Shown: positions 2 through 14,161, counted from the first letter of the stretch. The stretch is DNA of 64,000 nucleotides from Candidatus Zixiibacteriota bacterium (GCA_049694315.1 JBAVQU010000008.1:17665-81664); one strand, 5' to 3'. Notes: a model not told the origin generated them from the sequence alone. Translations and numbers: made by a program.

Positions 2-943
2 GATAAGGGCGCCTGGGTGCTGCACATGTTGAGACACATGGTGGGGGATTCCACCTTCTTTCACATTTTCCGAAGCTACTATTCCGATCCGCGCTACGCC
101 AACGGAGTGGCGGAAACAGAGGATTTTCAAGGCATTTGTGAGGCGGTCTCGAGCAAAGACTTGGACTATTTCTTCCAGGAGTGGATTTACGGGACCTACT
201 ATCCACGGTATCAGTACTCCTATACTTTCCAGGCGGCCGGTGGAGGCTATTACGACGTCTTCATTCACTTGGACCAGACTCAAAGCACCAATCCCAACTT
301 CTTCACCATGCCGATCGACCTGCGGGTCGCCACAAGTTCCGGCAATACCACGGTGGTGGCATTCAACGATCCGCGGCACAAGGATTTTGTCGTGCGGGTG
401 CCTTCGGCCCCCACCAGTGTGAGCATAGATCCGGATGGCTGGATCCTAAAGTCTTCGTCTTCCGTCTCCTATGGAATGAACATAGTCACCACAGATTTGC
501 GGTCAGCCGCCCTGTCCTCCGCTTACGCCGAGACTCTTCTGGCCATGGGGGGAGTGCCTCCATACAAATGGAAAGTTCAAATCGACAGCTTGCCCAACGG
601 TCTGGTGCTGGACTCTCTGACCGGGATCATCTCCGGTGTCCCCACCGTTTTGGACAGCTTCGATTTCACCGTGAAGGTGACCGATTCCAGCTCCCCGGCC
701 AAAACTGACAATCAACAGCTTTACATCCTGGTGAACCAAACTTCATTCATCCACGGGGATGCCAATCACGATTCCCTGGTGGATGCGGGGGACGTCGTAT
801 ACCTGGTCGATTACCTCTTTCTGTCCGGCCCTGCACCCATTCCCCGGCAGGCCGGCGATGTGAATTGCGATGGGATTGTGAATACGTCCGACGTTATCTA
901 TCTGATTAACTACCTCTTCAAAGGAGGGCCGCCTCCGTGTTAG
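2..943 (+). CDS. M1-family aminopeptidase, C-terminal fragment (5' end outside the window) with a dockerin-like C-terminal module
   Basis: The frame is open from nt 2. DKGAWVLHMLRHMVGDSTFF...DLDYFFQEWIYG matches the region after the catalytic domain of M1 peptidases. The tail carries two GD(A/V)N-D-x(2)-(V/I)-x(2)-DV-x-YL-x-(N/D)YLF repeats. Confidence 0.75.
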   Translation, partial: DKGAWVLHMLRHMVGDSTFFHIFRSYYSDPRYANGVAETEDFQGICEAVSSKDLDYFFQEWIYGTYYPRYQYSYTFQAAGGGYYDVFIHLDQTQSTNPNFFTMPIDLRVATSSGNTTVVAFNDPRHKDFVVRVPSAPTSVSIDPDGWILKSSSSVSYGMNIVTTDLRSAALSSAYAETLLAMGGVPPYKWKVQIDSLPNGLVLDSLTGIISGVPTVLDSFDFTVKVTDSSSPAKTDNQQLYILVNQTSFIHGDANHDSLVDAGDVVYLVDYLFLSGPAPIPRQAGDVNCDGIVNTSDVIYLINYLFKGGPPPC

Positions 944-1188: not shown

Positions 1189-3447
1189 CTAAAAGCTAAA
1201 CCAGTAGTCTGTTTTCACAAAAAACAGATCCTCTTTCCTTTTGGACAGCTCCACTTCTCCCGGATTCATAACCAAGTTCTCATTGTGGTTGTAAGCCAGA
1301 TATATGTAGCTTCCGGGCAAGTAGTTGTATTCCAACAAGAGGTTCAGATCGGTGGTCTGGTCCTTCCGATCATCCTGGTAAAATGCTTTGAAGGAAAGCT
1401 GGGGGATAATCAGAAGATGGGAGCGGGCCGAGACTATCCATTCACTGGATGAAGTGTCCGTAGCGCTCGACGACAAAAAGTCGAAATGAACGTTTTCTAA
1501 GGTGACGATCAGCTGCAGCCGGTCTATGGGTTTGATCTGTGAGGAAAAGGCCAGATGCCGATACGAGTTGTCCCAGGACTTCGGTCTCAGCTTGAAGTAC
1601 TTGTCACCGACTGCTACAAACTTGGTGGTTGACATTCCCGGAACATCAAAAAGATAGTACTGGGTTCCGATTCCGTAAGTGATGCTTCCCACCACACTTT
1701 TCCAGGTGTGCGTGCCCAGGTAAAGCTCCCAATAATCATAGGTGACAGAGAAATCGTAAGGCAACTGGTAAGGACGTCTGTACTTGGGGAATTTGAAGAG
1801 GTATTCATAACGCGTCAAGTAAACGTCGGTCATGTTGGTTAAGGTGCTTCCGAAGCCCAAATAAAAGTGCTGCTGTGTCTTCTTGTGGTCGTGGTTTTCG
1901 TAGTAGTCGTATGAACCATAGGGGTTCAAGTTGTAGAAACCGTGTTTTCTTACCCACCAGCTGTAACTCAGATAAGCAGAGCCTCCTTTAATGTCTGTGT
2001 AAGGGATATAGCTGGTGGAGGTCGTGCAGTTCTCGGCGATGTCCTGAAACTTGAGGTCGAACTGAAGAGGAGCGCTACCCAGCCTTTGGCAGGCCAGGTA
2101 ATAAGCCCATCGGTCTTTTTTGTCGTCGCCATGAGGATGATGGATGACAGATACAAGGGGATAAAGACCAAAATCCTTGCCCAAGGATAGATAAGAATCG
2201 AAAGCCAAGGCTCCGTCTATCCAGCGGGAGTCATTGAGACCGTCTCCCTTCAATTCGTGGGTGGAGGTGGCCAACAAGCCGATGGTGGAGGATTTGAGTA
2301 TGTCCTTCTGCAGCCGGAAAGCACTATAATCCTCCCGCGGAATCCCGTCGGCTCTGTCTGTGGCCACGTTCAATGCCCCCAGGGAGAGACCTGCGACTCT
2401 CCCCACCAGCTTGGCCCCACCCAGGATGTCGACCGGGTTTTGCCTTTCCCGCCGACTACCTATGGAGCGGGTATAGAGAAGCGTGATAGGGGTCTTGAAT
2501 AGCTCCAAACCTTCCAAGAAGAAGGGTCTTTTCTCCGGAATCAGTCTCTCTTGGGGAAGGAGATTGAAGGTATCCACATCCGCTTCAATCAAGGCAAATT
2601 CCGGATTCAGGGTCAGATTCAGGGTCAGAGCATTGGTCAAATCGCTCTTCACGTCCAACCCCGCTTGAAACTTGTCCTCTTTTTCCGCATACTTATCGTG
2701 ATTGAAGGCTAAGTACGGGAAAAGATTGACGTGGGTGCGGGCTTGAATCTGCTCCAGACCCACCAAGTTTCCATACTTGGATACGCCGGCAGGATTCATC
2801 CCGGTCTCAGACCAGTAACCGATCTGCCTTCCCTGCAAATCCACCAGGAAGTTTATCCCCCACCGGGGAGCCTTGGGATCGTACCGGAGGATCCGAAAAG
2901 GAATGGCAAATTCACAGGACCAGGCATGTAAGGAATAGCTGGTGGCCGACTGCCAGATCCCATCCCATTTTAAGTCCATCTTGGAGCCTTCCGCCTCTGC
3001 ATGGCCATCATACTGCGAGTTTAAGGCATTTACTCCGAAGAAGTAACAGCTTCTTCTGTCGTTCATGCAGTCCAAATAGATGAAGGCACAATCGTCATAG
3101 TTGACCTCGGCATCGTCCCTTTTTAAGGTCCGGGCGGTCACCTTCAATGACTCGGGGAGAATGGTTTCGAATGCGACATAGAGATTCTGATTGTCGTAGG
3201 CAATCCTTACCTTCGAGTGAAATGCAGGTTTTTCTCCTTGCACCGGATACATGGTGACAAAATCCGTGATCGGCTCCTGTTTTAGCCAGCAGACATCATC
3301 CAGTTTCCCGTCGATTTTGGGTGGCTCGGTCACATAGATTGCTTTCATCTTTTTCTCTTCCGTCTGTTCAGCTCCCAGGGATATGGAATTAATTGAAATA
3401 AGGGACCAGAGCATTAAAAGCAAAAAAACCTTAATCCTTTTGTTCAA
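1189..3447 (-). CDS. Secreted CBM9-like / DUF5916-family protein, probably outer-membrane associated
   Basis: 752 aa ORF with an N-terminal signal peptide (MNKRIKVFLLLMLWSLISINSISLGA). The N-terminal IDGKLDDVCW...YDNQNLYVAF motif is typical of CBM9/DOMON-like modules. The long C-terminal region is beta-rich and ends in an aromatic residue. Confidence 0.6.
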   Translation of the reverse strand: MNKRIKVFLLLMLWSLISINSISLGAEQTEEKKMKAIYVTEPPKIDGKLDDVCWLKQEPITDFVTMYPVQGEKPAFHSKVRIAYDNQNLYVAFETILPESLKVTARTLKRDDAEVNYDDCAFIYLDCMNDRRSCYFFGVNALNSQYDGHAEAEGSKMDLKWDGIWQSATSYSLHAWSCEFAIPFRILRYDPKAPRWGINFLVDLQGRQIGYWSETGMNPAGVSKYGNLVGLEQIQARTHVNLFPYLAFNHDKYAEKEDKFQAGLDVKSDLTNALTLNLTLNPEFALIEADVDTFNLLPQERLIPEKRPFFLEGLELFKTPITLLYTRSIGSRRERQNPVDILGGAKLVGRVAGLSLGALNVATDRADGIPREDYSAFRLQKDILKSSTIGLLATSTHELKGDGLNDSRWIDGALAFDSYLSLGKDFGLYPLVSVIHHPHGDDKKDRWAYYLACQRLGSAPLQFDLKFQDIAENCTTSTSYIPYTDIKGGSAYLSYSWWVRKHGFYNLNPYGSYDYYENHDHKKTQQHFYLGFGSTLTNMTDVYLTRYEYLFKFPKYRRPYQLPYDFSVTYDYWELYLGTHTWKSVVGSITYGIGTQYYLFDVPGMSTTKFVAVGDKYFKLRPKSWDNSYRHLAFSSQIKPIDRLQLIVTLENVHFDFLSSSATDTSSSEWIVSARSHLLIIPQLSFKAFYQDDRKDQTTDLNLLLEYNYLPGSYIYLAYNHNENLVMNPGEVELSKRKEDLFFVKTDYWFSF

Positions 3448-3915: not shown

Positions 3916-4812
3916 TTACGGTAATGGTTTTTCAATTACGTACTCGATGCGTGCACCATAAAAACAAAGATACACCGGGGCGACCTCTATTGTTAAGAAG
4001 TAAAAAAATTTACTGTTGTCAATCATAGCACTAGAAAACGAAGAAACTGTGGCAGAGTCCCAAGAGACCACATGCCGTTCCAATGGAACGATTCCCAATG
4101 TGTCAACTTGTTGGGGGAGATAATAATAGGTTGCACGCGAGACCCTAAAAGTGCCAGGGTTCCCTGGGGGGTTATAATCAGAGTTATAGTAGAGTACAAC
4201 TTTAGTTATAATTGCACCCTGCGGAAGGTGAATGGGCGCAGAAACCCCAATTTTGGGACCTGAGGATCCACTAAAGCAGGAACGCCACTCTTGGTGTTCA
4301 CTAAACTCTGCCATCCCATAAGCAGCGCTCTGGAGCAGGTCAAATGAAAAAGAAGGGATCGAGTAATATCTTGTTGTCGGGTCTATGTGAATACTGTTTA
4401 CGTATATTGTATCACCCATTGCCCCGTCGATGCTGCCCACGTGATAAGCATATGCCACGCTCACCATCGGCTTTCTGGGTGTTATCTCCGGGTCGTCGCC
4501 TACTTTGACCCCTAAATATCTTATTGAGCCATCAAAAACTGAATAGGGAATTGAGTTCACACTTCCTAAAAGAACATTAAACACTCCTTTCTCCACTACC
4601 ACTGCAGACCGCGTCTCAGTCCACAGAGGAGTACTGCCGTTTGAGTCTGCATAAATGGTGAAGACCATCTGGATAGTCGTATCCAGAGGCGCACCGGTTG
4701 TCTTGGTTAGCTTCCCCTGGTAGTTAATCATTTGGGGAACTTCAGCCGAAGCTTGGTTGTATAAGAACCAAGAGAGGACAACGAATACCGAAATCAGGTA
4801 TAGCTTTTTCAT
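3916..4812 (-). CDS. Secreted hypothetical protein
   Basis: 298 aa ORF with a signal peptide ending in ASA. The ATG is preceded by aaaggagtaag. Confidence 0.6.
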   Translation of the reverse strand: MKKLYLISVFVVLSWFLYNQASAEVPQMINYQGKLTKTTGAPLDTTIQMVFTIYADSNGSTPLWTETRSAVVVEKGVFNVLLGSVNSIPYSVFDGSIRYLGVKVGDDPEITPRKPMVSVAYAYHVGSIDGAMGDTIYVNSIHIDPTTRYYSIPSFSFDLLQSAAYGMAEFSEHQEWRSCFSGSSGPKIGVSAPIHLPQGAIITKVVLYYNSDYNPPGNPGTFRVSRATYYYLPQQVDTLGIVPLERHVVSWDSATVSSFSSAMIDNSKFFYFLTIEVAPVYLCFYGARIEYVIEKPLP

Positions 4813-5071: not shown

Positions 5072-7576
5072 TTACGGAGTTGACAAAACCAAGCTTAATT
5101 GAGCTTTCCTTTTCCGGGAGCGGTTGATCAGATAGGCGGCCGTACCGTAGTAAGCGACGTGAATGAATATGAAGGTGGAGGCGTCAGCAATGTTTCTCCA
5201 CCCGACGGTTGCCGCTCCCAGGGTGAAAGCTCGGATTAGGGTGCCGAAAGCACCGACGTAGAGAGTCAAGAGAACCGGCAGCAGGTTGAAGATGAAGAAC
5301 CAAAGCATCACGCTGACCCCAAGGGCAAAGAACGGAGCATAGAAACGTATCACCTTCAGCTCGTGGGGGGAGGCCGTTAATCGGGTGTCTTTGGTTCTTT
5401 CTATCAGGGAATTCATCTTGTTTCTAAACGGGGCAATTCCCATGCCGGATACCCTCTTCAAGGCCGGGAGAATCACCCGCAAGTATATGAAGGTCTTGGT
5501 ATCCTCCATCAAATTTCGGCAATTTAGGCTGTGGGCAATGGCATAGTAAAAATCCGTGCGCATGTAAAACATGCACTGGAAGACTATCATGTAGAAGCTG
5601 GAAAAGATGAAAAGCTTGGCTAACTTGTCAAACCACGGATGGGACAGGAAGCCGTAAAGTGACCCGAGAACTCCCCCATTGGCCCCGGATGCCAGTCTCG
5701 CCAGCCAAGAGTGGCTAGAGCCGAGGTACAATAGGATGACTAATATCGATAGGGTTACGATATCGTTGAAGGCTCCGACCAGATAGACTATGAGCTTCTT
5801 TCTTTTGGGCAAAACCCAGGCATTGGAGACGTCCGTCTCCATTACCAACAGATACAGTCTGGTGCTTAGTCTGAAGGCGCTTTTCACCCCGTATTTTCTG
5901 GCGGCAAAGAAGTGAAACAACTCGTGTTTGGACGCTAAAATCGCTCCGGCGATGACCACGGCAAAGCCTGTCAGGGTGAAAAAGTTAGAGACGATCATGT
6001 AACGATAATGAGGCCGCAAAGCCGGATTTGAAATCATCAAGATCAGGGCGAGGGCCACGATGACCGAAGATATCACTGCCACCGGCCAGGACAGAATCCA
6101 CGAGAAGAGCTTGGGGTTGATTCGGTTGAAGACCGATTCAATCTTCCGGGTGGCCAGCTTTTCTCTGTCCAAGAGCATTCCGTTGACGCTTTTGACGAAT
6201 CCAGAGGAGAGCATGGATCTGATGAAATCTTGGATGTCGTAAGACTGCCTGGTTTCCTCATAGACTTTGTCCGTTACTTTTTTGACGTTCTTCTCTTGCT
6301 CCAACTGTTCTAAGATCCTAACCCCCACCTCCGGGAATTCTCCGTAGGTTCCGGTGTCCTCTTGTCCCACGATCCATCTTCCCTCGACCTTTGTCTTCAA
6401 CAGAGGGTTGAATTCCACCTCTTCTATTTCCGTCCCTTCAAGCTGGTTTACAACATCCGGTCTCTCCTTTTTGTCTTTGAGAGAAAGGTAGAGGCATTCT
6501 ATCAGCTTTCCTTCCCGGGTTCTTTGATGAATTGCCCCACCCTGGCAGAAATCCCAGGCGTCGCAGGCTTGGCAGTGAGCATCGTCTCTCAACCATTCCT
6601 TGTCTGTGAATCTCCTGAATTCGTTTTCCCAAACATCTTTGAATCTTTGTTTCAGAAGATCGCCCTGGATGGAAAGCTCTCGCGAGATTTCCAGGCACCC
6701 GCCCAGTTTTCCGTCATGGGTGATGGTGGCAGACTGAATCCCGGCGGTGCACAAGAAGAGGAAATCTCTTATTCTTCCCTCAAACTCTTCCCCACACCAG
6801 CCTTCGCAGGCCAGACTCACCTTCAGTTTACTCTTCTCCTGTCTGAATCTGTTGTTCAATGAGGAAATCCAAGATAGGAGCTGAAAGGTCTGCTCCTCTG
6901 AGATCTGCAAGTCCGGTCTGGTCTTGGCTCTTCCGATGGGAATGAGATGGCAGATCTTCCAGTCCCTTACGTCCAGTTGTACAAGAAGATCGTGTATTTG
7001 GGGCAGATCGGCAAAATTCAAAGAGGTGACCACAGTAGTGATTTGCAGGTATAGATCGGGATAACGCGTCCTGAGATACTTGATAGCTTTGACTACCTGC
7101 CCGAAGCTCCGTTTTTTCCTTTGCTTATTGTGGGACCCTTTGTTCCCGTCTATGGAAAGGGCCAAAGCTTCGGTCTTGGCTTTTATCAATTCGTCGATGA
7201 ACCCCAGGTTTTTCCCCAGGAAATATCCATTGGTGGATAAGGCGACTCTGAACCCCAAGGAGGACAGGAATCTGATTATCTCCATTAAGTCGGGGCGCAG
7301 GGTAAGCTCGCCGCCGGTGAGGGCAACCGTTAGCTTCTCCGGCTCGAAGTCCTCGGCAATCTCCTTGAAGATTCTTTTGGCTTGATCGGTGGTCAGATCG
7401 GGTCCCTCGTTTTCCTTCCATTCCTCCGGATTGCCGCAGTGCAGGCAATCCATGTCACACTCCTTGGTGATCTCCCAGCCGATCAGACGGAGATTTCGTT
7501 CTTGGATGGCCTCTCTGACTTTCTGAGGATGCTCTTGCAAGTATTTCTGACGGTCAACCAACTCTCGTGGGGACAT
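5072..7576 (-). CDS. Radical SAM/SPASM maturase fused to a PqqD-like RRE and a polytopic HExxH (M50-like) membrane domain
   Basis: CDMDCLHC (Cx3Cx2C) at aa 40-47. Cys-rich SPASM region at about aa 256-361 (CEGWC...C...C...HCQACDAWDFCQGG). PqqD-like segment at about aa 385-465 (...RILEQLEQEKNVKKVTDKVYEETRQSYDIQDFIRSMLSSGFV). This is followed by at least 8 hydrophobic helices, with HELFH at aa 551-555 and GAFND about 45 aa later. Confidence 0.8.
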   Translation of the reverse strand: MSPRELVDRQKYLQEHPQKVREAIQERNLRLIGWEITKECDMDCLHCGNPEEWKENEGPDLTTDQAKRIFKEIAEDFEPEKLTVALTGGELTLRPDLMEIIRFLSSLGFRVALSTNGYFLGKNLGFIDELIKAKTEALALSIDGNKGSHNKQRKKRSFGQVVKAIKYLRTRYPDLYLQITTVVTSLNFADLPQIHDLLVQLDVRDWKICHLIPIGRAKTRPDLQISEEQTFQLLSWISSLNNRFRQEKSKLKVSLACEGWCGEEFEGRIRDFLFLCTAGIQSATITHDGKLGGCLEISRELSIQGDLLKQRFKDVWENEFRRFTDKEWLRDDAHCQACDAWDFCQGGAIHQRTREGKLIECLYLSLKDKKERPDVVNQLEGTEIEEVEFNPLLKTKVEGRWIVGQEDTGTYGEFPEVGVRILEQLEQEKNVKKVTDKVYEETRQSYDIQDFIRSMLSSGFVKSVNGMLLDREKLATRKIESVFNRINPKLFSWILSWPVAVISSVIVALALILMISNPALRPHYRYMIVSNFFTLTGFAVVIAGAILASKHELFHFFAARKYGVKSAFRLSTRLYLLVMETDVSNAWVLPKRKKLIVYLVGAFNDIVTLSILVILLYLGSSHSWLARLASGANGGVLGSLYGFLSHPWFDKLAKLFIFSSFYMIVFQCMFYMRTDFYYAIAHSLNCRNLMEDTKTFIYLRVILPALKRVSGMGIAPFRNKMNSLIERTKDTRLTASPHELKVIRFYAPFFALGVSVMLWFFIFNLLPVLLTLYVGAFGTLIRAFTLGAATVGWRNIADASTFIFIHVAYYGTAAYLINRSRKRKAQLSLVLSTP

Positions 7577-7790
7577 GTCGTCGTCGCCTTCTCATTATTG
7601 GTGACTTGCTCCTTCCGTCCGATGTCGCGTTCGTCAACACAAACTCGTTTCCGGGTTGTGTTAGATACCAAGCTCATTCATCCAAGACCCTCGCCAGAGC
7701 CATGCTCCACCGCAAATGGAGTGCGGACACTGCCTGATAAGGGCAATGTCCACACACCGCAAAACCTCCCCACCTTTTTGTCATCCGCTG

Positions 7791-7874
7791 CTATCCCGGA
7801 GGCATGACCATGGGCTGCATTGTGGGAGGTCCGGTGGTGTCGATCCTCTCCAGCCAGTTGATGGTGATTTTCAT
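7791..7874 (-). CDS. Putative RiPP precursor peptide 1 (27 aa: MKITINWLERIDTTGPPTMQPMVMPPG)
   Basis: Too short for the ORF track. ATG at 7874 is preceded by aaggagg. It is a paralogue of 8017-8106, and the differences between them are mostly synonymous in this frame. Confidence 0.65.
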   Translation of the reverse strand: MKITINWLERIDTTGPPTMQPMVMPPG

Positions 7875-8016
7875 CTCTCTCTGCCTCCTTGCTCAAGGGA
7901 TTTAAGCTAGTGCCCCCCTGAACGGGACAAAACTGTAAGGTTTAACGCGAGAGCTTTCAAAGCGTGGACATCACCCCAGAGGGGCGATGTCCACAGGCTG
8001 TAACCGCCACCTTCTG

Positions 8017-8106
8017 CTAGACGCCACCGCCGACAACTATCATCGGCTGCATCACCGGTGGGTCAGTGGTGTTGATTCTCTCCAGCCAGTTGATGGTGAT
8101 CTTCAT
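8017..8106 (-). CDS. Putative RiPP precursor peptide 2 (29 aa: MKITINWLERINTTDPPVMQPMIVVGGGV)
   Basis: Too short for the ORF track. ATG at 8106 is preceded by ggaaggaggtga. The first 22 codons are conserved with peptide 1, and the C-terminus diverges. Confidence 0.65.
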   Translation of the reverse strand: MKITINWLERINTTDPPVMQPMIVVGGGV

Positions 8107-8419
8107 CCGTAATCACCTCCTTCCTTCGAAAGGATTGAAGAGCTTGCCTCGAAGAGACAAGACCCGGAAAGTCTATTCTTTGAAACACGACAAAGAAGCC
8201 GTAAGCCTTCCACCGATACCACCTAACACGTTAAGATCAAAGACCTTATTAGCTGATCGAATTGGGGAGGATGCGCTCTTCTTGCCCATCGGAGTCTGGA
8301 CAAAATTGGTTATGTCTCTCTACAGGTGTTTATCATAATCTACCACTCGCTCCCCTGATGTCAAGTGAAAAATTCGGGGCGCCAAAGATTTTTTGGTGGT
8401 TACCGGAGGCACGTCCGGC

Positions 8420-9452: not shown

Positions 9453-10715
9453 TCACGGGAAAATCCCGCGTCGGTGGTATATTTTCTCCAGTCGCTCCAG
9501 CGCGGCAGCGTAAGCCGCCTTGCGCCAGTCGATCTTCTTCTCCGCGGCTTTCGTGTTTATCAAATTGAATGCATCCACTATCCTGCTGCGCAGTTTGGAA
9601 TCCACCTCATCTAAATCCCAGAATTCGCTGCGTTTGTTCTGAAGCCACTCGAAATAGCTCACGATCAATCCGCCGGAGTTACACAAAAGATCCGGGAGGA
9701 TGTCGATGCCTCTCTGCCGCAGAATCCGGTCACCGTCCGGATCGGTAGGGCCATTGGCTCCCTCCGCCACCAGCTTGACCTTGAGAAGCGGAGCCGTATT
9801 GCCCGTGATCTGATTCTCCAGCGCCGCCGGAATGAAAATGTCGGCCTGCGTCTGAAGAAAGGTAACATGATCCATCGGTTTAGCCTGGGGATACCCCTTG
9901 ATTCCGCCATTCTTTCTGACGTAAGCGGTCAAATCGTCCGGGTCTATCCCCTGAGGATCAAGGATGGCGCCGGTGAAATCCTCAGCCGCCACCAGTTTCG
10001 CTCCATGCGGTTTCAAAAGCCGGGCGGCCCAGGATCCGACCTTTCCGAATCCTTGAACCAGGTAAGTGGCCCCGGACAGGTCGAAACCTTTGAGCTTCGC
10101 CCACTCCTCCACTAAGAAAACCATCCCCTGACCGGTGGCTTTGTCACGACCCAGGCTCCCTCCCGATTTGACCGGCTTGCCGGTCACCACGTGTTTACAC
10201 GCCTGCCGTTTGTGCGGAGGAACGGTGGACAGATAAGTATCCAATATCCAAGCCATGATCTGAGCACCGGTGCTCAAGTCCGGGGAAAGGATGTCATACT
10301 CTGGTCCTATGTTGTTCCCTAAAGCGAAGGTGAACCTCCGGGTAATTCGCTCCAGCTCGTTGAATGTGAATTCAGACGGGTTGAACCTGATTCCGCCGTT
10401 GGCACCTCCCATGGGGATATTGGCGATGGCCGCCTTCCAGGTCGTGCAAGTGGCTAAGGCACGCACTTCTTCCAGCTCCAGTGCAGGATGATAGCGTAAT
10501 CCGCCCTGAAACGGCCCCATCACATTGTTGTGCTGCACCCTGAAGCCGGTAAACATCTCCACCCGACCATCGTCCATCTTCACCGGGAAATTGACCACAA
10601 TCTCGTTGGCAGTTTTAGCCAGCATTCCGCGGACGTCGGGATCTAACCCAATCATTTTGGCCGCGTCATCCACATGCTCGATCACGGTATCGCAGAAACT
10701 CTTTTGTTTTGCCAT
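9453..10715 (-). CDS. gdh: Glu/Leu/Phe/Val-family dehydrogenase (glutamate dehydrogenase, about 420-aa type), paralogue 1
   Basis: WKAAIANIPMGGANGGI, the GTGAQIMAW-type region, VQGFGKVGSW (Rossmann) and EGANGPT are all present. Confidence 0.85.
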   Translation of the reverse strand: MAKQKSFCDTVIEHVDDAAKMIGLDPDVRGMLAKTANEIVVNFPVKMDDGRVEMFTGFRVQHNNVMGPFQGGLRYHPALELEEVRALATCTTWKAAIANIPMGGANGGIRFNPSEFTFNELERITRRFTFALGNNIGPEYDILSPDLSTGAQIMAWILDTYLSTVPPHKRQACKHVVTGKPVKSGGSLGRDKATGQGMVFLVEEWAKLKGFDLSGATYLVQGFGKVGSWAARLLKPHGAKLVAAEDFTGAILDPQGIDPDDLTAYVRKNGGIKGYPQAKPMDHVTFLQTQADIFIPAALENQITGNTAPLLKVKLVAEGANGPTDPDGDRILRQRGIDILPDLLCNSGGLIVSYFEWLQNKRSEFWDLDEVDSKLRSRIVDAFNLINTKAAEKKIDWRKAAYAAALERLEKIYHRRGIFP

Positions 10716-10747: not shown

Positions 10748-12028
10748 TCATGGGAAAATCCCACGTTCTCGGTAAACCGTCTCTAAGCGAGACAGGGCTA
10801 CGATGTAAGCTGCGGTACGCCAATCGGTCCGATACTCCTTGGCGGTATCTCGCACGTGCTCATAGGCACTCACGATCTTCCGGTATAGTTTGCTGTCCAC
10901 CTCGGCTAAATCCCAGAATTCGCTGCGCTTGTTTTGCAGCCACTCGAAATAGCTGACCACCACTCCGCCGGCGTTGCACAGGATGTCGGGAATCAAATCG
11001 ATTCCTTTTTGCTGGAGTACCCTGTCACCATCGGGATCCGTGGGGCCGTTAGCTCCCTCCGCCACCAACTTGACGTTTAGGAGCGGGGCGGTTTCTCCGG
11101 TGATTTGGTTCTCCAAGGCGGCGGGAACGAAGATGTCGGCCGGGGTACGAAGCAGGGTCTTCCGATCGATCGGCTTGGAGCTTGGATAGCCGACGATAAG
11201 GCCCTTGTTCTTCTTGGCGTAAACCACCAGGTCTTCCGGATCGATCCCGTCGGAGCTGGCGATGGCTCCGCTGGCATCCTCTGCGGCGATCAGCTTCGCC
11301 CCGTGTGGTTTTAGAAGCAGAGCAGTCCAGGAACCAACGTTTCCGAATCCCTGCACCGTGTAGGTGGCGCCTTTTAGGTTAAAACCTTTGTCCTTGGCCC
11401 AGTGTTCGATAGTGTAGACCACCCCTTGACCGGTAGCCTTGTCGCGCCCCAAGCTTCCGCCCGACTCAATCGGCTTGCCGGTTACCACATGGATGCAGGC
11501 CTGTCTCTCGTGCGGCGGCATGGTGGAAAGAAAAGTATCCAAAATCCAAGCCATGATCTGGGAGTTGGTATTAACGTCCGGTGCGGGGATGTCGTACTCC
11601 GGTCCGATATTGTTCCCCAAAGCGAAGGTGAACCGACGGGTTATTCGCTCCAACTCGCTGGCCGAATACTTGAAAGGATCGCATTGAATCCCTCCCTTGG
11701 CCCCTCCAAACGGTATGTTGGTCAATGCTCCTTTCCAGGTCATCCAGGTAGCCAATGCCCGGACTTCGTCAATGTCTACCGCAGGGTGAAAACGAAGCCC
11801 ACCTTTGTAGGGACCTAAGGCATTGTTATGCTGGACCCGATAGCCGGTCAACATCTCAATACGACCATCGTCCATCTTGACCGGAAAGTTGACGACGATC
11901 TCGTTGTTGGTCTTGCCCAAGATCTTGCGCATGTCCAGGTCCAGCTTCATCAAGTCTGCTGCCTTGTTGAATTGCCAGACCACGTTGTCATACACGCTGG
12001 TTCTTCTTCCCCCGGATGCGTCTGTCAT
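10748..12028 (-). CDS. gdh: Glutamate dehydrogenase, paralogue 2, in tandem with 9453-10715
   Basis: Colinear and highly similar to the neighbouring gene (FPVKMDDGR.EM.TG.RVQHNN..GP.KGGLR.HP; VQGFGNVGSW; EGANGPTDPDGD). SD aaaggagg. Only 32 nt separate the two genes. Confidence 0.85.
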   Translation of the reverse strand: MTDASGGRRTSVYDNVVWQFNKAADLMKLDLDMRKILGKTNNEIVVNFPVKMDDGRIEMLTGYRVQHNNALGPYKGGLRFHPAVDIDEVRALATWMTWKGALTNIPFGGAKGGIQCDPFKYSASELERITRRFTFALGNNIGPEYDIPAPDVNTNSQIMAWILDTFLSTMPPHERQACIHVVTGKPIESGGSLGRDKATGQGVVYTIEHWAKDKGFNLKGATYTVQGFGNVGSWTALLLKPHGAKLIAAEDASGAIASSDGIDPEDLVVYAKKNKGLIVGYPSSKPIDRKTLLRTPADIFVPAALENQITGETAPLLNVKLVAEGANGPTDPDGDRVLQQKGIDLIPDILCNAGGVVVSYFEWLQNKRSEFWDLAEVDSKLYRKIVSAYEHVRDTAKEYRTDWRTAAYIVALSRLETVYRERGIFP

Positions 12029-12172: not shown

Positions 12173-12520
12173 CTATTCGTATTCCTCGCACCGCCAGACA
12201 CCGTCTTCCGGCCTAGGGAAGGTGCAGGTCTTGCGATTCTCACAATTCAGGCACAGCCCTTTGAACTGGCCCTTGCTATTTTCGGCCACCACGGATTCTC
12301 TTCTGGCATGGGCGGCCGCCAGAAAACTCTCGACCGTGGTTCGGTCCACCGGTGCGTCGATGGCTTCGAACTCTTCGCACTGCCATACCGGTTGATCCGG
12401 ATTTCTAGGATAACTGCAGCTGCGAACGTGGTCGCAGGTGAGACATAATCCACCATATTCCGGCTTTCTCAGGACCTCGGCTATGGTCGTCTCAGCGGTC
12501 TTAGTTGATGGATTCTTCAT
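12173..12520 (-). CDS. Small protein with a duplicated 4-Cys motif (unknown family)
   Basis: 115 aa. It contains two copies of GLCL(T/N)C-x5-C-x(11-12)-VW-x-CEE(F/Y)E, one of them at the extreme C-terminus. SD aaaggaggtag. A sigma-54 promoter lies upstream. Confidence 0.7.
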   Translation of the reverse strand: MKNPSTKTAETTIAEVLRKPEYGGLCLTCDHVRSCSYPRNPDQPVWQCEEFEAIDAPVDRTTVESFLAAAHARRESVVAENSKGQFKGLCLNCENRKTCTFPRPEDGVWRCEEYE

Positions 12521-12790: not shown

Positions 12791-14161
12791 TTAACTCGTG
12801 GAATTTTCGGAGGGAGTCGGTTTCTGTAATTTCTCGCGCAGGGTCTTTCGATCGATGCCCAAGATCTGTGCCGCCTTGGTCTTGTTTCCTTTCACGCTCG
12901 ATAGAACGTTGCGGATGTACTCCACCTCGACTTCTGCCAAAGTCCGGTTCAGTCCGATTTCTCTTTGCGCCGTGAACCGCATTAAGGACGGAAGGTCCGG
13001 AACGTCGATCGATTCCCCATCGGTCATCACTACCAGACGCTGGATGACGTTTTCCAGCTCACGGACATTGCCGGGCCAATCATAATGCTTCAGCGCCTCC
13101 AGCGCATTCTCGGAGAAACGGGGGCTGGGTTTGCCGAACTCCTCGGCGTATTTGGTGGCAAAGTGGTTGGTCAAAAGCACTATGTCCTCCCACCTTTCTC
13201 GCAGGGGAGGAATGGCAATATTGATTACGTTGAGCCGGAAATACAAATCCTCCCGGAAGAGCTGTTTGTTGACCAGGCTGAGCAGATCTTTGTTGGTGGC
13301 GGCCAGAATCCTGACGTCGACCTTGCGGGGACGAGTTGTGCCTACCATGTAGACCTCTGTGTCCTGAAGTACCCGGAGCAGCTTTACCTGCATGGACAGG
13401 GAGGTTTCGCTGATCTCATCCAAGAAGATCGTGCCGCCGTCGGCGGTTTGAAAAAAGCCGGCTCGGGATTCGATGGCTCCGGTGAACGACCCTTTGACAT
13501 GGCCAAACAGCTCACTTTCCAGGAGCCCCTCCGGTATTCCGCCGCAGTTCACCGGCACGAAGGGAGCGGAGGCACGCGGACTGCCGTAGTGAATGGCTCG
13601 CGCCACCAGCTCCTTGCCGGTTCCGCTCTCTCCGGTGATGAGCACGGTGGCGGAGGTGGAGGCTGCCTTAGTGATCGCTTCGAAAACCTTGAGCATCGCT
13701 TCCGATTCTCCGATCAAACCACCCGGCGCCTTGGTGGCTCGAGGAGTGAGATTTCGTCCCGCTCGCCGTGCCTGCAGCTTGTCCAAGACCTTTCGCACGG
13801 CGAAGAATAGCTCCTGGTCAGTAAAAGGCTTGGGCAGGTACTCCTCCGCCCCGATCTTGATGGCCTTGACCGCCCCTTCGATGGTGGCGTAGCCGGTGAT
13901 CATGATCACTTCGGTATCCTTTAGGTTTTCCCGAATGTGTCGCACCATGTCCAGCCCGCTCACTTTGGGCATCTTCAGATCGGTGATGACCAGATCCACC
14001 GTGGTCCCTTCGAGAATCTTGATCGCCTCCGCCACGTCCGAGGCGGTGAAGACCTGGTACCCCTGGGAGGTTAAGTTTCTTTGAAGCACCTCCAGGGTGT
14101 TGGGAGCGTCGTCAACCACCAGAATTCGCTCTGTATCGACTGCGGCCGACATGCTATTCAC
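12791..14161 (-). CDS. Sigma-54-dependent response regulator (NtrC family)
   Basis: Receiver domain (DLVITDLKMP), AAA+ domain (GESGTGKE, GSFTGA, ESELFGH) and a C-terminal Fis-type HTH (GNKTKAAQILGIDRKTLREKL). Confidence 0.9.
   Translation of the reverse strand: MNSMSAAVDTERILVVDDAPNTLEVLQRNLTSQGYQVFTASDVAEAIKILEGTTVDLVITDLKMPKVSGLDMVRHIRENLKDTEVIMITGYATIEGAVKAIKIGAEEYLPKPFTDQELFFAVRKVLDKLQARRAGRNLTPRATKAPGGLIGESEAMLKVFEAITKAASTSATVLITGESGTGKELVARAIHYGSPRASAPFVPVNCGGIPEGLLESELFGHVKGSFTGAIESRAGFFQTADGGTIFLDEISETSLSMQVKLLRVLQDTEVYMVGTTRPRKVDVRILAATNKDLLSLVNKQLFREDLYFRLNVINIAIPPLRERWEDIVLLTNHFATKYAEEFGKPSPRFSENALEALKHYDWPGNVRELENVIQRLVVMTDGESIDVPDLPSLMRFTAQREIGLNRTLAEVEVEYIRNVLSSVKGNKTKAAQILGIDRKTLREKLQKPTPSENSTS

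Follow-up and report, generated by a model that had tools for sequence, protein, structure and literature searches.

The 64,000-nucleotide stretch analysed here, referred to throughout as the window (Candidatus Zixiibacteriota bacterium, GCA_049694315.1 JBAVQU010000008.1:17665-81664), carries a gene whose 834-residue product combines a radical S-adenosylmethionine (rSAM) domain, a SPASM-type auxiliary cluster, a PqqD-like recognition element of peptides made on ribosomes and modified after translation (RiPPs) and a polytopic membrane domain with an HExxH motif. Upstream of it stand two short genes for putative RiPP precursors. An original prediction, made by reading the sequence alone, had proposed both the four-element polypeptide and the adjoining precursor pair; all four elements do lie in one reading frame, and the pair is found at 8017..8106 and 7791..7874 on the minus strand. 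The features of the locus are given here from upstream to downstream, residues being those of the fused protein, with TM for transmembrane and RRE for RiPP recognition element.

8337..8364, minus strand: promoter-like site, TTGACA, 16-nt spacer and TAGATT with a TG extension, 10/12 matches
8017..8106, minus strand: precursor A, 29 aa, leader MKITINWLERINTT and core DPPVMQPMIVVGGGV, with the ribosome-binding site GGAAGGAGG in front
7964..7994, minus strand: hairpin after precursor A, 14-bp stem, no U tract, -36.9 kcal/mol, z = -4.45
7791..7874, minus strand: precursor B, 27 aa, leader MKITINWLERIDTT and core GPPTMQPMVMPPG, with the ribosome-binding site AAGGAGG in front
7718..7758, minus strand: hairpin after precursor B, 14-bp stem, no U tract, -34.7 kcal/mol, z = -2.08 (weak evidence)
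5072..7576, minus strand: fused maturase gene, 834 aa plus stop, one unbroken reading frame
6983..7474, minus strand: rSAM core, aa 35-198, Pfam 73.7 bits, with CDMDCLHC at 40-47 and GGE at 88-90
6494..6808, minus strand: SPASM-type auxiliary cluster region, aa 257-361, with Cys 257, 261, 276, 294, 335, 338, 344 and 361
6182..6424, minus strand: RRE, PqqD-like winged helix, aa 385-465, assigned by family profile and fold
5075..6109, minus strand: six-TM HExxH membrane domain, aa 490-834, a putative divergent M50-like intramembrane metalloprotease
5912..5926, minus strand: HELFH, aa 551-555, where TM2 ends on the cytoplasmic side, with the putative catalytic Glu and zinc ligands, invariant in 111 sequences
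5552..5554, minus strand: D675 in MRTDFYY, invariant, putative third metal ligand

The N-terminal half is recognised by Pfam Radical_SAM (PF04055) well above its cut-off of 29.5 bits, and the predicted Cx3Cx2C motif is present as C40-D-M-D-C44-L-H-C47, with all three Cys invariant in the 10 fused homologues that were aligned. The SPASM model (PF13186) also matches above its cut-off, at aa 276-339 (27.5 versus 21.5 bits). The reference SPASM motif comprises seven Cys, CX9-15GX4C ... CX2CX5CX3C ... C, which ligate two auxiliary [4Fe-4S] clusters. In the same 10 homologues, C276-x12-G-x4-C294, C335-x2-C338-x5-C344 and C361 are invariant, but the fourth Cys of CX2CX5CX3C is missing from the window protein, with A348 in its place. 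Either C257 or C261 is present in each homologue, and one or both could substitute for it. When the AlphaFold2 (AF2) model of the full protein was searched with Foldseek, the top matches of this half were SkfB, PqqE, SuiB, BlsE, anSME, CteB and EpeE, the last at rank 22. Among curated families, the best match of aa 17-363 is TIGR04133, 'rSAM with lipoprotein', which aligns over the full model length at 247.6 bits, far below its curated cut-off of 425; the second-best curated rSAM family reaches 119.8 bits. TIGR04133 is likewise the best curated match of the other fused clades. A partner lipoprotein of the TIGR04133 type was not found beside the window gene, whose neighbours are the two short peptides, a 298-aa open reading frame (ORF) and a DUF5916 protein, and a literature search on TIGR04133 found nothing.

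The closest standalone relatives of the rSAM half (31-34% identity) come from metagenome-assembled genomes of Clostridia/Lachnospiraceae and are TIGR04133-like at 267-304 bits, also below the cut-off. At the loci of the five closest (L015 3333-3923, L016 5267-5866, L017 3727-3999, L018 5581-5853 and L024 364-3261), between one and four genes for lipoproteins or membrane proteins come before the rSAM gene; each product has up to three '(V/A/L)YGPP' repeats, every one of the five relatives is preceded by a protein with two to three VYGPP repeats, and GPP was found in no other nearby ORF of these loci. The repeat may be a substrate motif of this TIGR04133-like clade. A 377-aa protein upstream of the standalone rSAM gene in L024 was considered as a hidden RRE-protease and rejected (hhalign probability 0.1).

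The middle segment, at about aa 385-465, is RRE/PqqD-like by profile as well as by fold, as had been proposed. A profile of the module formed by this segment and the membrane domain, built from 103 family members, matches the lasso peptide protein TbiB1 (5v1u) at E 5.3e-5 (hmmsearch) and also a PqqD family protein (9x8z) and TfuB1; 15/103 family members match PqqD at E <= 0.01. The AF2 model of aa 365-834 has a mean predicted local distance difference test score (pLDDT) of 91.4 and a predicted template modelling score (pTM) of 0.89, and pLDDT exceeds 90 over the RRE region. Four short beta-strands (386-414) are followed by three helices (416-457), consistent with the winged helix-turn-helix of reference RREs, a three-stranded sheet plus three helices. 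Foldseek pairs the region with TbiB1 at a probability of 1.0 (TM-score 0.69-0.71, root-mean-square deviation 2.5-3.1), and with the RREs of CteB (0.94) and ThcOx (0.82).

The membrane domain had been predicted to have at least eight TM helices. Family-averaged hydropathy reduces these to six, at approximately 499-515, 534-550, 602-618, 656-672, 748-781 and 800-816, and the K/R content of the loops, in order 14.8, 1.2, 6.1, 1.2, 13.2, 0.9 and 4.4, agrees. This clean alternation implies an N-in/C-in topology, which places the RRE, the HExxH motif at the end of TM2 and D675, after TM4, all on the cytoplasmic side. As the site-2 protease likeness had suggested, HELFH (551-555) lies within a helix; this helix covers 533-561, and the motif sits where the hydrophobic segment 534-550 ends. 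H551, E552 and H555 are invariant in 111 sequences whose mean column identity is 17%, and over 103-111 sequences (17-23% mean column identity) the sole invariant residues are these three, G601 and D675. The invariance of HExxH across 111 diverse sequences implies that it is not a chance occurrence. The GAFND motif (601-605), put forward as a site-2 motif, does align with the AGP-type motif helix of MJ0392, and its Gly is invariant, but D605 varies; the acidic residue kept throughout is D675, in MRTDxYY after TM4, which would be the better candidate for a third metal ligand.

Kinship with the M50 family is visible at the level of the family. The 103-member profile matches the site-2 protease MJ0392 (3b4r) at E 3.6e-4 over about 85 residues, and RseP (7w6x) over the HExxH helix. 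At E <= 0.01, Pfam Peptidase_M50 matches 76/103 family members, and the relative P0016 scores above its cut-off (30.6 bits). Among curated protease models, the NCBIfam model of the daptide intramembrane metalloprotease (NF041824) matches 43/103 relatives, the RseP model 14/103, and the model of the YydH/LiaK epipeptide maturation metalloprotease (NF058609) also 14/103. The profile matches together with the invariant HExxH...D speak against an unrelated transporter with an accidental motif.

Independent metagenomes supply seven full-length relatives of the fused protein at 72-81% identity, and another three fused clades stand at 35-42% identity to the window protein. Over 12 independent contigs from different samples, in four clades spanning 35-81% identity, carry the unbroken ORF of 830-856 aa. 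A search of 185,579 GTDB species representatives returned no full-length relative, solely rSAM-domain relatives in Clostridia, and a metagenome locus scan with a 9-member fused alignment returned three loci. A word-indexed protein search had yielded few relatives; the family emerged only when aa 365-834 were run against 1.84 billion representatives in an exhaustive HMMER scan. Among the best 150 family representatives of that scan, only three are rSAM fusions. The triple fusion is thus rare. The AF2 model of the full protein (mean pLDDT 82.7, pTM 0.68) is confident in most of the N-terminal half and throughout aa ~385-820; its weak stretches are the linker 346-373 and portions of the SPASM region. 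No description of an rSAM/SPASM+RRE+M50 triple fusion was found in the literature searched, where queries on RRE+M50, PqqD+site-2 protease, rSAM+intramembrane fusion and TIGR04133 returned a protease review and a daptide paper only. The domain order therefore has no match among the characterised RiPP maturases found there, as the original prediction had supposed.

Both window precursors, MKITINWLERINTTDPPVMQPMIVVGGGV (A) and MKITINWLERIDTTGPPTMQPMVMPPG (B), consist of MKITINWLERI(D/N)TT followed by a Pro/Met-rich core, and each ORF is preceded by a strong AAGGAGG-type ribosome-binding site. Precursor A is found as the identical peptide in L001-L003 and as A-type orthologues in L004, L007, L008, L009 and L010, while B-type orthologues occur in L001-L005 and L007-L010, which are all the close-clade loci with upstream DNA. 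The core types are conserved as ...PM[IV][IV][IV]GGG[VAT] for A and ...PMVMPPG for B. One to three such conserved peptide ORFs lie upstream of the enzyme in every fused locus with upstream DNA (14/14: the window, L001-L005, L007-L010, L013, L014, L022 and L023), an outcome in favour of the original prediction, which homologues lacking such neighbours would have refuted. In the distant clades the leader is held in common with the window and the cores differ: P0010 (L013, 41% identity) has the upstream peptides MKEIRFRWLEKIDTTASSPPIMAVLIAPVPP and MMKDIGIRWLEKIDTTASGIMVTAAVYMLPS, P0011 (L014, 37% identity) has ...VEFRWLEKLEMTADLNTVMVHWEPCLGLC, and L022 and L023 (35-42% identity) have ...WLEKLEMTSLH(T/G)(N/A)TVMT(H/T)FP.... 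A Met flanked by V/I/P/T/A, 4-8 residues past TT/MT, is kept in all fused clades. The window peptides read T-T-(G/D/N)-P-P at the start of the core, and their cores have no Cys. Across loci, synonymous substitutions occur at 8/16 of the N-terminal codons compared (the 14-aa leader plus the first two core residues). A regular expression for the leader, built post hoc from the same sequences, retrieved these ORFs only from 275 kb in six frames. The locus thus has the layout of a generic RiPP cassette, with short precursor genes adjoining the enzyme, a conserved leader and a variable core.

Of the accompanying DNA elements, the hairpin after precursor A is the better supported, with 0/200 shuffles folding equally well. 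The two hairpins might act in processing or stability, or might be partial terminators and so fix the ratio of precursor to enzyme. The promoter-like site, a consensus match only, precedes the first precursor gene by about 230 nt and is one of four such sites found versus 2.8 expected. Three independent contigs carrying the same homologue (P0004; L001-L003) end exactly 919 bp upstream of the gene, just past the precursor genes, which suggests an assembly break, perhaps at further repeated copies of the precursor.

Beyond the fusion, the RRE-protease module is widespread. The exhaustive scan returned 913 clusters with a limit of E <= 1e-3, and 625 with the limit at E <= 1e-10; among the 150 matches listed, the majority measure about 410-430 aa, and in most the alignment starts at the RRE. 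Standalone RRE+M50-like proteins share operons with ThiF-family adenylyltransferases at L011 6853-9284, L012 2090-4813 and L026-L029 (plasmids); the plasmid copies, from Streptomyces, Nocardia, Priestia and Macrococcus, are all in ThiF operons, and P0038 is itself a ThiF+RRE+protease fusion. Two recent reviews of ThiF-type RiPPs mention no M50 partner. The standalone Calothrix module P0159 comes after a ThiF-family gene, and the precursor reads ...IQIRKLERLETTKGRDGGCC (leader IQIRKLERLETT, then KGRDGGCC); in the Nocardia ThiF-linked locus it reads ...VVISIRRLDKKETTGLPCSGNGAS (leader ISIRRLDKKETT, then GLPC...). The Priestia ThiF operon has three copies of the 21-aa MKKIVVRKLATVTVPQLRPGT, with a related N-terminal phi-phi-phi-R-K-L and no TT, and no such precursor was found in the Streptomyces and Macrococcus ThiF loci scanned. 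The closest standalone relative, P0012, has no tailoring enzyme nearby; its locus (L020 5756-5950) encodes a 64-aa, very hydrophobic peptide beginning MKMEKITVRKIEDISTTGGPTLG..., in which the leader ...ITVRKIEDISTT directly precedes GGPTLGVLEYIV... (GGPTLG...). An ABC (ATP-binding cassette) transporter lies a few kb upstream. This locus looks bacteriocin-like, and leader removal may be its sole maturation step. In all, a related leader motif was found in 3/5 ThiF loci scanned and in the one locus without a tailoring enzyme, and the leader ends in TT in 4/5 leader families seen, as phi-x-phi-(K/R/N)-(W/K/R)-(L/I)-(E/D)-x-x-x-T-T. By its sequence, then, the leader appears to track the RRE-protease module and not the tailoring enzyme. 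Its presence across rSAM, ThiF and enzyme-less loci implies that the RRE would recognise the leader and the protease would cut at or just after TT; in the window protein the RRE is likewise predicted to recognise the TT leader.

Other genes of the window were also considered. Downstream of the maturase gene lie the two neighbours listed here.

3916-4812: 298-aa secreted ORF with no Pfam match, between the fused enzyme and the CBM9/DUF5916 gene
1189..3447, minus strand: CBM9/DUF5916 protein with a signal peptide, its membership in the system uncertain

The CBM9/DUF5916 protein is encoded directly downstream of the fused enzyme in all close-clade loci that extend far enough, and is absent from L013, L014 and L022, which represent distant fused clades. 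It could reflect a functional link, perhaps an outer-membrane step, or mere synteny. Farther away, a 115-aa ORF with no Pfam match (12173-12520, minus strand) contains a pair of Cys-rich repeats (C-x2-C-x6-C ... W-x-C-E-E-(F/Y)-E). On the minus strand its position is just downstream of a gene for a sigma-54-type response regulator (12791-14161). Tandem paralogous ORFs of 420 aa (9453-10715, minus strand) and 426 aa (10748-12028, minus strand) look glutamate dehydrogenase-like on reading their sequences. At the edge of the window, a secreted protein is represented by a C-terminal fragment (17-943, plus strand) that includes a type I dockerin domain and a He_PIG Ig-like domain; in organisms that form no cellulosomes, dockerins are unusual.

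The nearest described counterpart of the C-terminal module is the daptide protein MpaP, an RRE fused to a PF02163 protease and described as an 'RRE-dependent intramembrane peptidase' (Ren et al. 2023, PMC10036551; bioRxiv 10.1101/2023.03.08.531785). In both modules an RRE at the N-terminus leads into a polytopic HExxH M50-like domain, and RRE-dependent leader removal is proposed for MpaP. Although 43/103 module relatives match the MpaP model (NF041824, cut-off 300 bits), the window protein misses it even at E 0.01 and differs in having rSAM/SPASM fused in front. Moreover, no match to the daptide tailoring families (DUF-RRE MpaB, dehydrogenase, aminotransferase and methyltransferase) was found in the adjacent window ORFs, and the daptide leader, in which the mutagenesis positions spell E-L-D-P-M-E-x-P (PMC10036551), differs from that of the window. 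The epipeptide systems YydFGHIJ and EpeXEPAB pair an rSAM epimerase (YydG/EpeE) with an M50 protease (YydH/EpeP) encoded by separate genes (PMC10885120; PDB 8ai4), and M50 proteases in RiPP maturation include EpeP/YydH and TglG/TmoG (PMC10885120). Here the resemblance lies in an rSAM/SPASM-type maturase and an M50 intramembrane protease acting on a short precursor, in the 14/103 module relatives matching the YydH/LiaK model and in the presence of EpeE among the structural matches of the N-terminal half. In contrast to the window, the epipeptide genes are separate and include an ABC transporter (YydIJ), none being adjacent to the window maturase gene; the window rSAM is nearer TIGR04133, AhbD and MftC than YydG, whose family model is not among its best 25 rSAM matches; the window protein does not match NF058609; and the precursors are unrelated.

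TIGR04133 gives the window protein its best curated match, over the full model length, and the window protein differs from the members of that family, soluble proteins of about 350 aa, in its score (247.6 versus the 425-bit cut-off) and in lacking a partner lipoprotein. The lasso B1 proteins TbiB1 and TfuB1 provide the best profile and fold match of the RRE. In lasso systems an RRE hands the leader to a peptidase, and a conserved Thr lies near the cleavage site (PMC10885120), to which the TT at the end of the window leader may be compared; the lasso partner, however, is a cysteine protease and not a membrane metalloprotease, and no lasso cyclase is present. The site-2 proteases MJ0392, RseP and SpoIVFB share with the membrane domain an HExxH TM helix close to the cytoplasmic face, after which come a beta-hairpin and the AGP-type motif helix. 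Unlike them, the window protein has no PDZ or CBS domain, places its acidic ligand candidate in MRTDxYY rather than NxxPxxxLDG, and gives no overall Foldseek fold match; its presumed substrate is a soluble leader peptide delivered by the RRE, not a membrane-spanning regulator. Thus the RRE-protease fusion is already known, as is the use of rSAM and M50 enzymes as separate genes. What is new, going by the literature searched, is the single-polypeptide arrangement of known parts and the precursor family; the rSAM reaction has candidates only.

Starting from the established domain identities, topology and precursor association, we consider it likely that the locus is a minimal, self-contained RiPP-type cassette, composed of one to three precursors and one membrane-anchored enzyme that would recognise, modify and trim them. 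The 27-29-aa precursors would be translated from their own strong ribosome-binding sites, and the cytoplasmic RRE (aa ~385-465) would bind the leader, phi-x-phi-(N/K/R)-W-L-E-(R/K)-(I/L)-(D/N/E)-(T/M)-T. The rSAM domain has no N-terminal RRE, its Cx3Cx2C motif starting at aa 40, which implies that a single RRE would serve both catalytic domains. The rSAM/SPASM half would then abstract a hydrogen atom from the Pro/Met-rich core, candidate sites being near the Met 4-8 residues past TT, or at the (G/D/N/S)-P-P that follows TT. Since the window cores lack Cys, thioether (sacti- or ranthipeptide) chemistry is discarded for this clade. The candidates are epimerisation, for which the rSAM+M50 pairing of the epipeptides is the analogy, and a C-C or C-O cross-link. 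The six-TM domain, in which H551/E552/H555 and D675 stand where TM2 and TM4, respectively, end on the cytoplasmic side, would remove the leader, probably by a cut at or just after TT, beside helix-breaking G/P residues, and a hydrophobic peptide of 13-15 residues would be released at the membrane. That the membrane domain might also export the product is pure conjecture. The fusion most likely arose when an RRE-protease that already existed gained an rSAM gene at its N-terminus.

Several results weigh against this scheme. In the isolated window segment, Pfam PqqD (PF05402) reaches 16.1 bits, below its cut-off of 23.4 (E 0.015), so that of the PqqD assignment it is the family-level profile that holds and not the single-sequence match. 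The M50 assignment divides in the same way: against the cut-off of 27.2 bits for Peptidase_M50 (PF02163), the window protein scores 23.1, 25.3 and 26.6 bits, although most relatives match, and none of the NCBIfam protease models matches it above curated cut-offs. The membrane domain retrieved no solved site-2 protease from the PDB with Foldseek, despite a model of pLDDT 91, its top matches being non-significant ones to ABC exporters, and the canonical site-2 protease motif NxxPxxxLDG is not present as such. The nearest rSAM relatives stand beside larger VYGPP-repeat (lipo)proteins, which implies that this rSAM clade is not exclusively peptide-directed. Finally, no conserved transporter or immunity gene was found. 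We do not take the Foldseek result as deciding against M50 homology, since the family is connected by sequence profiles and by curated RiPP-protease models. Nevertheless, given the sub-threshold scores and the lack of a structural match, we name the domain divergent M50-like, as its sequence suggests, and not a certified M50 member.

These points lend some weight to other explanations. The rSAM domain might act on a different substrate, either a larger secreted protein or lipoprotein, or a cofactor as for AhbD/NirJ, leaving the RRE-protease to process the peptides independently. Such a division of labour, which we regard as unlikely, would accord with TIGR04133 being the best curated match with AhbD/NirJ next, with the VYGPP-repeat proteins that precede all five closest standalone relatives and with the signal-peptide DUF5916 protein conserved downstream in the close clade. 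The last of these is itself an unlikely rSAM substrate, for it has no xPP motif and is absent from three distant fused clades in which the peptides are always there. In addition, the window cores start with (G/D/N)-P-P, in resemblance to the Y-G-P-P repeats, no recognition domain besides the shared RRE accompanies the rSAM domain, and a fusion of two enzymes normally signifies a common substrate.

A link between membrane domain and peptides that is only indirect, the domain being an anchor, an exporter or a regulatory site-2-type protease (acting, for example, on an anti-sigma factor), appears to us very unlikely. The structural null and the ABC exporter matches, the sub-threshold M50 scores and the proposal that EpeP aids export besides cleavage (PMC10885120) would fit it, but HExxH and D are invariant over 111 diverse sequences, the RRE is always fused directly to the membrane domain, the shared leader motif accompanies the module whether the locus has an rSAM, a ThiF or no enzyme, two models of RiPP proteases (daptide MpaP and YydH/LiaK) pick up relatives, and no conserved anti-sigma or sigma gene lies nearby. 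It is more improbable still, to the point of being hardly credible, that the fusion is an assembly or annotation artefact, with adjacent genes joined by a sequencing error, or that the short ORFs are non-coding repeats. All the sequences are metagenomic, and the common end point of three contigs 919 bp upstream hints at assembly trouble near repeated precursors. Yet the ORF is unbroken on all the independent contigs of the four clades, the AF2 model is confident through most of its two halves, with the weaker stretches noted above, and the peptide ORFs keep both frame and ribosome-binding site, with nothing but synonymous changes at most of the leader codons.

We therefore return to the single-enzyme cassette. 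If it is real, one gene and a 27-aa ORF would make a complete pathway, about as compact as an rSAM RiPP gets and convenient for heterologous expression and engineering; one RRE would be shown to serve two catalytic domains; and the TIGR04133-like rSAM clade would be tied to a defined short substrate, making its chemistry directly testable. A broader reading, which we offer tentatively and hold to be possible rather than probable, is that of a portable RRE+M50-like leader-peptidase platform, comprising more than 900 clusters at 50% identity, with a shared leader and combined with rSAM, ThiF or no enzyme, on which an rSAM from a TIGR04133-like clade (standalone members of which occur by VYGPP-repeat proteins) installs a modification undescribed in RiPPs on Pro/Met-rich cores, possibly at x-G-P-P, and so constitutes a new single-enzyme class of RiPP. 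The finding points to a large family, mostly unannotated, of membrane leader peptidases that depend on an RRE and have a leader motif in common.

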